From positions 35,881-99,880 of the forward strand of contig CAYORS010000001.1 in the NCBI GenBank assembly GCA_964406475.1: a stretch of 64,000 bases of DNA, given 5' to 3'. This document shows positions 300 to 663 of this stretch, piece after piece (position 1 is the stretch's first letter; each line of letters begins with the position of its first letter). Origin of the DNA: an uncultured Candidatus Saccharibacteria bacterium (GTDB taxonomy: Bacteria > Patescibacteriota > Minisyncoccia > Phycocordibacterales > CAIRYW01). The notes below the pieces were generated by a model, which did no database searches, was not told the DNA's origin, and saw nothing but the letters and a program-made list of their open reading frames with translations. Position numbers and translations under genes: made by a program.

Positions 300-663
300 G
301 ACAGAGAGGGGGGGGGTGTCGTCACAGATAATCTCGAGAGGAGAATCTCCCGCACCTCTCATCTCGCCGTCGCTCGATTCGGGTTCGGCACCAGCTCGCT
401 TGTTTCTGAAACTTCAGAAACCTAGCCCCCGTTGTTCGATTCTCCCACACAGAACACTCAAGCGTTTTGTTTAGTCCCACAAAAGTAGGAGAATCGACCA
501 TTACATGGTCAGTACACCTTTTGGTGATTTTGTCTCTCCGCCAGCCGGCGGATCGCAAAATCAGCTCAAAAGGTTTTCGATTCTCCCACGAAAGTGCCCT
601 GCACTTTCTTACTCACACAAAAATACAAAAAGCACCTAAGACTAGGTGCTTTTTGTATTTTTG
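300..663. repeat. tRNA-Gly-associated structured repeat element, locus A (possible ncRNA, MITE-like element or integration scar)
   Basis: Contains 387-421 ggcaccagctcgcttgtttctgaaacttcagaaac, about 94% identical to 48628-48662. Sense-like T-arm fragments gttcgattctcccacac (434-450) and ttcgattctcccacgaaag (577-594) are inverted relative to the real tRNA-Gly on the minus strand. TTACA-loop hairpin gacca-ttaca-tggtc at 496-510. Hairpin gaaagtgc-cct-gcactttc at 590-608. Palindrome 610-671 overlaps the tRNA 3' end. Confidence 0.5.

Follow-up and report, generated by a model that had tools for sequence, protein, structure and literature searches.

A ~105-nt core with three helices, which we call type 1, has its best-conserved arm and junction strand in a 35-nt repeat found twice in the DNA analysed here (a stretch of 64,000 nt, hereafter the window). 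The type-1 element is genuine, conserved and structured, and the family, in which the core is held by clamps copied from the 3′ end of a tRNA, is previously unannotated and belongs to tiny-genome Patescibacteria. All three tRNA transcription units of the window carry an array of such units downstream. At a probability of roughly 45%, our preferred reading is that the units would be structured tRNA 3′-trailer RNAs that base-pair either internally, with their own sense copies, or with the tRNA over its 3′ third, and whose processing would be coupled to that of the tRNA.

The two copies of the repeat lie at 387-421 (GGCACCAGCTCGCTTGTTTCTGAAACTTCAGAAAC) and 48628-48662 (GGCACCAGCTCGTCTGTTTCTGAAGCTTCAGAAAC) on the plus strand, exactly where the first-pass annotation had placed them. 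They agree at 32 of 35 positions (91%, not the ~94% first given). No third copy occurs in the window with up to three mismatches allowed, and chance matches numbered zero in 100 dinucleotide shuffles. The palindrome GTTTCTGAA/TTCAGAAAC described within the repeat is present; for steric reasons, its 9 bp amount effectively to 8 bp with a 4-nt loop. The T-arm-like words said to lie 8-12 nt beyond the repeat were located 12 nt away in locus A (GTTCGATTCTCCCACAC, 434-450) and 11 nt away in locus B (GTTCGATTCCTACAC, 48674-48688); at both loci they correspond to the T loop of the adjoining convergent tRNA together with the 3′ strand of its T stem (...TTCGATTCTCCC for tRNA-Gly, ...TTCGATTCCTAC for tRNA-Lys). 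The repeat had been viewed as a module preceding an inverted T-arm copy, but both are parts of one larger element; loci A and B have further modules in common, which had been missed together with two extra loci in the window, at 53214-53388 on the plus strand and 62999-63195 on the minus strand. The element had also been read on the plus strand, whereas the evidence given below favours the minus strand. Read in that direction, the 35-mer is 5′-GUUUCnnn-AGCN-nnnGAAAC-ARN-CGAGCUGGUGCC-3′. The plus-strand repeat thus corresponds, in reverse complement, to a single arm of the type-1 core together with the strand CGAGCUGGUGCC.

The window cores A and B are 62% identical overall and 42% identical outside the 35-mer, while the core of locus A (winA) is 87% identical to that of L028, one of the loci fetched for comparison, and the core of locus B (winB) is ~71% identical to those of L019, L024 and L030. 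Given that each window core is nearer to copies in other genomes than to the other window core, the identity of the 35-mers reflects constraint and not the recent common origin that had been proposed, and the sub-families must be old. The other proposal, selection on structure in a functional or mobile RNA module, agrees well with our data: homologues exist elsewhere, and they keep the hairpin through compensatory changes, so that neither a module limited to two copies nor a lack of covariation, both named beforehand as grounds for refuting it, was observed.

Other interpretations of the repeat region were rejected. The 35-mer hairpin is not a GC-rich stem running straight into U residues, as an intrinsic terminator would be; on the minus strand it is followed by AAGCGAGC. 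The CGGGTTCGGCACCAGCTCG stem on the plus strand, the only one flagged by the terminator consensus scan, is at chance level and conflicts with the fold supported by covariation. A peptide starting at the core ATG GTT... meets a stop at codon 4 in L013, and the changes in the stems are compensatory.

The units share one layout. On the tRNA strand, the order at every locus is tRNA, palindrome, a5, H1, GT, T5ext, core, T3ext and, in some units, a3. The palindrome consists of an A-rich stretch, a GC hairpin and a T-rich stretch, and its arms (25-29 nt, 97-100% complementary; inverted repeats I7, I14 and I6) reach into the 3′ strand of the tRNA acceptor. The a5 segment is an antisense copy of that acceptor 3′ strand, CCA included where it is encoded, and is followed by H1, a ~22-nt hairpin, and the dinucleotide GT. 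T5ext is the antisense of tRNA positions 53-65, and T3ext, located 3′ of the core, is a sense copy of positions 56-65; the core takes the place of the T loop. The a3 segment is a sense copy of the acceptor 3′ strand and is intact only in young units. The units form tandem arrays, in which type 1 stands alongside at least two other core types.

The evidence for the type-1 fold comes from an alignment of ten units from nine genomes. The RNAalifold consensus contains 37 pairs in four helices (H1, P2, H2 and H3), 24 of them with compensatory double changes, and 95.4% of the cells are paired. Shuffling lowers this share to 75.5% (0/500), and sliding the partners to 37-44%. In the 35-mer hairpin, the three distal pairs differ in almost every genome (TGA/TCA, GCA/TGC, TTT/AAA, GCC/GGC, TTC/GAA, GCG/CGC and TAA/TTA), and GGCACCAGCTCG is followed by a variable dinucleotide that changes in concert with two bases past the hairpin (CT/AG, TC/GA and GC/GC). 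Stretches of 12 nt are invariant across genomes of 35-51% GC. When a covariance model built from the type-1 cores (R1) was searched over 253 kb, it found 18 copies, 17 of which are situated 3′ of a tRNA, at a distance of 40-570 nt and in the orientation of that tRNA. This covariation contradicts the idea that the units are functionless debris left by decayed tRNA pseudogenes or old integration scars. Debris would explain the tRNA fragments, the decay of many a3 and T3ext segments and the variation of the arrays between relatives, but not the compensatory changes in 24 pairs, the 12-nt invariant stretches, or cores and H1 hairpins that have no counterpart in a tRNA and in which ARAGORN and Rfam find no tRNA-like fold; we consider it extremely improbable.

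Four loci were mapped in the window: A (308-671, minus strand), B (48308-48767, minus), C (53203-53388, plus) and D (62999-63195, minus). Array A is preceded by tRNA-Gly(GCC) (663-734, minus; called by ARAGORN and scoring 67.9 bits with the Rfam tRNA model), upstream of which lies tRNA-Arg(TCG) in the same orientation (770-844, minus). Counted from the tRNA, a type-2 unit comes first and a type-1 unit second. The terminator-like palindrome (610-671, minus; I7, 29-nt arms, 97% complementary) includes the acceptor strand at 664-671 and a5 at 610-617. The H1 hairpin of the type-2 unit A2 (590-609, minus) was read from the sequence and has a similar sequence at the same position in locus C. The unit itself (485-589, minus) comprises T5ext (576-589, the antisense of tRNA-Gly positions 53-65 with 0 edits), a long hairpin (516-574), a UACUG-stem-UGUAA hairpin (496-515) and T3ext (485-496). 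A decayed a5 and the H1 hairpin of unit A1 follow at 451-484 (minus; alignment A1 columns 1-36, RNAalifold pairs 15-23/28-36). The type-1 unit A1 proper (340-450, minus) is made up of T5ext (434-450), the core with the 35-mer (387-421), H3 (355-383) and T3ext (340-348), and scores 102.3 bits (E 6e-26) with R1. The array ends at 308-326 (minus) with the word UGUGACGACA (317-326; TGTCGTCACA on the plus strand), which is also present in L021, L028 and L033, and then a C run (308-316).

Array B follows a tRNA at 48757-48832 (minus) that ARAGORN calls 'Stop tta', a suppressor. We assign it to an ordinary Lys(UUU) because the Infernal alignment shows the anticodon loop CUUUUAA; its orthologues in L021, L024 and L030 have the same loop and an identical or near-identical anticodon arm, and are called Lys. 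The order here is type 1, composite, type 2. The terminator-like palindrome (48712-48767, minus; I14, 25-nt arms, 100% complementary) includes the tRNA 3′ end with CCA and, at 48712-48723, a5. The type-1 unit B3 (48567-48710, minus; 100.5 bits with R1) contains H1 (48689-48710), T5ext (48674-48688), the 35-mer (48628-48662), H3 (48600-48622) and a T3ext (48567-48590, minus) that carries a 14-nt mini-hairpin insert; its a5 and T5ext match the tRNA over 11+13 nt. Composite decayed units, together named B2 (48416-48566, minus), retain an a5 copy (48512-48519), the word TGTGGTCACA (48523-48532), a UGUAA hairpin and a T3ext with insert (48422-48457), and contain the direct repeat D8. The partly decayed type-2 unit B1 (48308-48415, minus) has T5ext at 48400-48415, the long hairpin at 48352-48397, the UGUAA hairpin at 48332-48351, T3ext at 48322-48331 and a C-rich run at 48308-48318.

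Locus C is a single type-2 unit behind tRNA-Arg(GCG) (53139-53213, plus; ARAGORN and Rfam), with the palindrome at 53203-53261 (I6, 29-nt arms, 100% complementary), a5 at 53251-53261, H1 at 53262-53281, T5ext at 53282-53295, the core at 53296-53365 and T3ext with a 14-nt insert at 53366-53388, all on the plus strand. Locus D combines a terminator-like palindrome (~63140-63185) and segments resembling a5, H1 and T5ext with a diverged type-1-like core (62999-63108, minus; 30.6 bits with R1, E 4e-6). ARAGORN and Rfam found no tRNA or other known RNA upstream of it; the sequence just upstream ends in ...GTCCGAACTCGAGAGCCTCCGCA, resembling the 3′ end of something tRNA-like. The word GCGAGTACGCTTATCG occurs in three exact copies (48429-48444, 48575-48590 and, reverse complemented, 53365-53380), which are the T3ext segments with the 14-nt mini-hairpin insert AAGCG-UACU-CGCGG. 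The insert of L013 is a covarying version, AAGGC-UACU-GCCGG, and the units with an insert all follow tRNAs (Lys, Arg and Asn) with the T arm GTAGGTTCGATTCCTAC.

The type-2 core consists of a long hairpin with a UUGAGC/AUCCAA internal loop, then UACUG, then a short hairpin capped by the pentaloop UGUAA. The UGUAA hairpin was located in the window at 496-515, 48332-48351 and 53347-53365, and also in L011, L021, L024, L030, L032 and L034. Its stem covaries, with at least nine different stems, and all 12 matches are on the tRNA strand. A third core type, distantly related to type 1, reads GGCGGAGC ... GCGAGCCGGGGUCG ... CGUGACC and was seen in L033 (9722-9827), L034 (9723-9830), L028 (193-300), L038 (5687-5771) and, in the window, at 317-326 and 48523-48532. 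In the L038 example, the antisense tRNA copy is one contiguous 19-mer without H1.

Which strand matters was judged from several lines of evidence. In the tRNA-strand helices, 14 cells are G·U and six are A·C; 18 of 19 arrays fold more stably on that strand (mean −8.1 kcal/mol, Wilcoxon p=0.001), and so does the T5ext/T3ext clamp helix in 17 of 21 units (p=0.006). A consensus scan placed promoter-like sites on the minus strand upstream of the tRNAs only, with none within the arrays. Taken together, these results indicate that the relevant strand is the tRNA strand, i.e., the minus strand of the window for arrays A and B. They also speak against a small RNA made from the plus strand, convergent with the tRNA, sharing a bidirectional terminator with it and ending in a tRNA-like 3′ end. 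Such an RNA would make sense of the symmetric palindromes (A tract, hairpin, T tract), which could terminate plus-strand transcripts, and of the fact that the plus-strand element ends in sense T-arm and acceptor-CCA words. On the plus strand, however, A·C mismatches outnumber G·U pairs, the fold is the less stable one for 18 of the 19 arrays and for 17 of the 21 clamp helices, and no promoter-like site lies upstream of the arrays, and we regard this explanation as very unlikely. G·T pairs are tolerated in single-stranded DNA hairpins too; the strand bias alone is therefore no proof of RNA.

The arms of the units are specific to the tRNA that they follow. Added together, the exact matches of a5 and T5ext come to a mean of 17.8 nt with the cognate tRNA versus 8.6 nt with non-cognate tRNAs. 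We surveyed 41 tRNAs from the window and 16 fetched loci, 17 Patescibacteria sequences in all; the sample is enriched for the module, a search for which had supplied 9 of the 17 sources. An antisense copy of at least 10 nt of the tRNA's own 3′ end was found within 400 nt downstream of 18 of these tRNAs and upstream of one, and a sense copy of at least 9 nt, up to 24 nt long, downstream of 12 and upstream of none. The antisense segment follows the tRNA more closely than the sense segment: over 20 units, T5ext has accumulated 16 edits and T3ext 38 (14 vs 3 units, p=0.002), and the drift of T3ext consists mainly of C-to-T changes that preserve G·U pairs with T5ext. Positions 53-55 of T5ext have no partner in T3ext. 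When a tRNA and its first unit are folded together, the 3′ third of the tRNA is predicted to pair with the trailer; for locus B (winB), the predicted energy is −149.2 vs −120.9 kcal/mol, with 45 cross pairs. UGGUGC, present in the core, is complementary to GCACCA, the sequence with which tRNAs of this genome end.

These observations raise the question of whether the units are antisense RNAs acting like guides. Under this explanation, a5-H1-T5ext would be a programmable guide whose target is the cognate tRNA or its gene, over the 3′ third, the cores would be handles for a protein or for catalysis, and the purpose would be tRNA folding, processing or quality control, or the targeting of tRNA genes. 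The higher fidelity of the antisense copy and the inclusion in T5ext of positions 53-55, unpaired in T3ext, favour it, as do the cross pairs predicted for winB, the contiguous 19-mer of L038 and one sub-family that carries different, matching guides behind different Lys tRNAs. On the other hand, a folded tRNA is a poor target for pairing, no partner protein is encoded nearby, and a quasi-palindrome can be corrected at the DNA level, which could preserve a perfect antisense copy even if selection played no part; the fidelity of T5ext fits such correction and selection for tRNA complementarity equally. We know of no bacterial guide system of this kind, and overall we think this explanation unlikely. 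Its widest form, a programmable Patescibacteria RNA family in which at least three scaffold types and a bipartite antisense guide make up a bacterial guide-RNA system that, with a partner encoded elsewhere, targets tRNAs or their genes, is a long shot; the roles of such a system would be control of folding or processing, modification, or RNA-guided insertion at tRNA genes.

The window comes from a Patescibacterium: homologues of its CCA-adding enzyme are 60-79% identical and labelled Patescibacteria, Paceibacterota or Taylorbacteria. An exact-pattern scan of species-representative genomes returned one copy, behind tRNA-Thr in a Patescibacteria MAG. In the metagenome scan, seven of 30 matches were genuine and lie behind Gly, Lys, Asn and Ala tRNAs; the other 23, in high-GC coding DNA, were rejected as chance matches. 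In total, the core was found behind Gly, Lys, Thr, Asn and Ala tRNAs in nine genomes or metagenome contigs of 35-51% GC, and in each copy found by scanning the adaptor segments are those of the local tRNA.

Gain and loss of units between relatives is rapid, as revealed by seven fetched loci orthologous to the cca/tRNA-Arg/tRNA-Gly region of the window. Behind tRNA-Gly(GCC), the window has a type-2 and a type-1 unit, L032 a variant unit, L038 nested type-2 units and L039 a single type-1 unit in pristine state, its 18-nt sense copy being perfect, and no unit was found there in L033, L034, L035 and L040. The tRNA-Arg(TCG)/tRNA-Gly spacer is short in the window and L040, holds 300-425 nt of units in L032, L038 and L039, and contains the third core type in L033 and L034. 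A perfect 70-nt repeat in L019 that starts in the tRNA T loop points to a very recent tandem duplication. In L038 (~5000-5450, minus), one type-2 core is nested in the long hairpin of another. In L039 (~60-440, minus), the sequence after tRNA-Pro is a 24-nt copy comprising the complete T arm and acceptor strand, beyond which lies a type-2 unit that ends in a third perfect copy.

The same region shows two further peculiarities. The acceptor pair 4:69 of tRNA-Gly(GCC) is G·U (window, L032 and L039) or A·C (L038) in loci with units and G-C in the unit-less L033, L034, L035 and L040, which is either a conserved wobble geometry or a trace of recombination within the tRNA gene. Positions 1-300 of the window contain a DnaA-box-like TTATCCACA (~255-264) and the palindromes GTTTCATATGAAAC and TGTTTCTTATGAAACA; this block, probably a replication origin or a conserved control region, also adjoins tRNA-Gly(GCC) in L032, L033, L035, L038, L039 and L040.

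Such turnover is compatible with non-autonomous mobile DNA, similar to MITEs or CIMEs, that inserts at tRNA 3′ ends and is moved in trans, the sense copies being duplicated targets or att sites and the hairpins signals for recombination of DNA or single-stranded DNA. Several features agree with this: repeats that copy the final 18-24 nt of the tRNA in sense orientation border the units in the manner of att sites; at orthologous positions a block is either present or missing, and where present it brings its own palindrome and pyrimidine-rich tail; cores are nested in L038, arrays are tandem and palindrome arms perfect; and units behind three tRNAs sharing the T arm GTAGGTTCGATTCCTAC have the same 14-nt insert. 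The perfect palindrome arms of 25-29 nt exceed the need of an RNA hairpin and hint at copying at the DNA level. T5ext and T3ext resemble the inverted ends of a MITE and the tRNA 3′ copy a long target duplication, but they differ for each tRNA, and copies within a genome are only 62% identical. Against mobility, no recombinase, integrase, transposase or reverse transcriptase gene was found in or beside any array; the neighbours are housekeeping genes, encoding the delta subunit of DNA polymerase III, DoxX, a pseudouridine synthase, Fpg, RuvA, Fic and the CCA-adding enzyme, and an Xer-like gene lies several kb off in relatives both with and without arrays at these tRNAs. A single recombinase would need to accept many tRNA sequences, the sub-families predate species splits, and the strand-asymmetric wobble pairs and the covariation in four helices fit a transcript. 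No phage or plasmid copy of arrays A and B was found by blastn, and viral contigs contained no exact module. In view of these data, mobile DNA is a rather doubtful explanation of the units.

We return to structured trailer RNAs, the preferred reading. The units would be made by read-through from the tRNA promoter, and the antisense segments would pair with their own sense copies into a long acceptor/T-like double helix bearing the core or, alternatively, with the 3′ third of the tRNA itself. Production and processing of the unit may be coupled to the tRNA, as for the rtT RNA of the E. coli tyrT operon, and recombination between the many copies of tRNA 3′ ends may let the arrays expand, contract and spread. 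What the data establish are the fold, the strand bias, the match between arms and tRNA, the tandem arrays and their turnover, while transcription, processing and any effect on the tRNA are inferred. Besides the palindrome arms, longer than an RNA hairpin needs, two features weigh against parts of this reading. Given the strong terminator-like hairpin between tRNA and unit in the window loci, little read-through may occur. Most units have a decayed a3, so that the family does not conserve a full tRNA-like acceptor helix, which weakens the case for release by tRNA-processing enzymes.

If the units are real RNAs, a large share of the tRNA genes in one of the biggest bacterial radiations would have an unannotated structured partner (18 of the 41 tRNAs in our module-enriched sample, for which 9 of 17 sources were found by searching for the module). 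They would constitute a new class of non-coding RNA with strong covariation and arms rewritten for each tRNA, provide a natural case of sequence-programmable pairing to tRNAs, and hint at how organisms with minimal genomes handle tRNA transcripts. For annotation, the segments should not be labelled pseudo-tRNAs, att sites or terminators.

Searches against known RNAs gave no relevant match beyond tRNAs. Rfam at the gathering score recognized only the four tRNAs in the whole window, and at E<=10 in loci A, B and D it added to the tRNAs only chance microRNA-like matches on the palindromes. Self-cleaving ribozymes, riboswitches and T-box leaders were rejected, there being no relevant Rfam match at E<=10. 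Neither ARAGORN nor Rfam detected a tmRNA, standard or permuted; the sole 'hit' was the 3′ end of tRNA-Gly at 12 bits. A tRNA or tRNA pseudogene is equally unsuitable, as ARAGORN and Rfam gave only the four genuine tRNAs and the units have no D or anticodon arm. An IS110-type bridge RNA or another RNA of an RNA-guided transposon does not fit either, as no recombinase is adjacent and both antisense segments complement the same strand. Judged on anatomy, hammerhead-, twister-, T-box-, H/ACA- and bridge-RNA-like readings all lack defining motifs or partner genes. A literature search for tRNA-linked structured elements in Patescibacteria found nothing except group I introns in the anticodon loop, which are unrelated.

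Other known systems resemble the units in part. The 3′ETS of leuZ is an sRNA sponge in E. coli, and plant mitochondrial t-elements and mascRNA are tRNA-like processing signals. As with these, a non-tRNA RNA would come from a tRNA transcript or have part of the tRNA shape, and be handled by tRNA enzymes; to our knowledge, however, no functional tRNA trailer, t-element or mascRNA belongs to a family of many copies that share a conserved core and have arms complementary to a specific tRNA. The units are similar to att sites and cis-mobilizable elements in that a direct repeat of the tRNA 3′ end borders the block and accretion at the tRNA gene is tandem, but here the blocks are only 110-200 nt in length, those between the direct repeats measure 110-600 nt and hold neither an ORF nor a recombinase, many tRNA species are used, and antisense copies and covarying helices are not features of att sites. 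The complement of the last ~20 nt of a specific tRNA recalls the primer-binding sites of retroelements, T-box leaders and guide RNAs. This is a resemblance only: the units have no reverse transcriptase, no regulated downstream gene and no Rfam T-box match, and we know of no bacterial partner protein for such a tRNA-complementary RNA.

The rtT RNA of E. coli (rttR; Rfam rtT) stems from the 178-bp repeats of the tyrT-tyrV operon. The rtT family gave no match at the gathering score in the window or at E<=10 in loci A and B. Direct inspection of the tyrT/rtT locus (L036, NC_000913.3 1286690-1287640) revealed 178-nt repeat units, each with a 22-nt antisense T-arm copy (GGGGAAGGATGAGAAGCTTCGA) that is 86% complementary to the tRNA-Tyr T arm, and each with a terminal 19-nt segment (AATCCTTCCCCCACCACCA) that repeats the 3′ end of tRNA-Tyr in sense orientation. 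The annotated rtT RNA, 171 nt in length, spans one unit and is stated to take part in processing the adjacent tyrT transcript (bioRxiv 10.1101/2024.07.17.603846). Like rtT, the Patescibacteria units stand in tandem directly 3′ of a tRNA on the same strand; an antisense T-arm copy and a terminal sense copy are likewise seen in the window units, L013, L019, L030 and L039. There is no similarity in sequence or core structure between the two. Furthermore, rtT is a single locus at one tRNA species, whereas a single conserved Patescibacteria core is used with tRNAs for at least five amino acids, the arms being changed to suit each tRNA. The Patescibacteria units also come in several core types, their antisense copy is interrupted by a hairpin, and their palindrome takes in the acceptor strand. 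The long-neglected rtT repeat, of a kind known but barely understood, gains a wider context: it is the closest known design, and the Patescibacteria elements share its principle.
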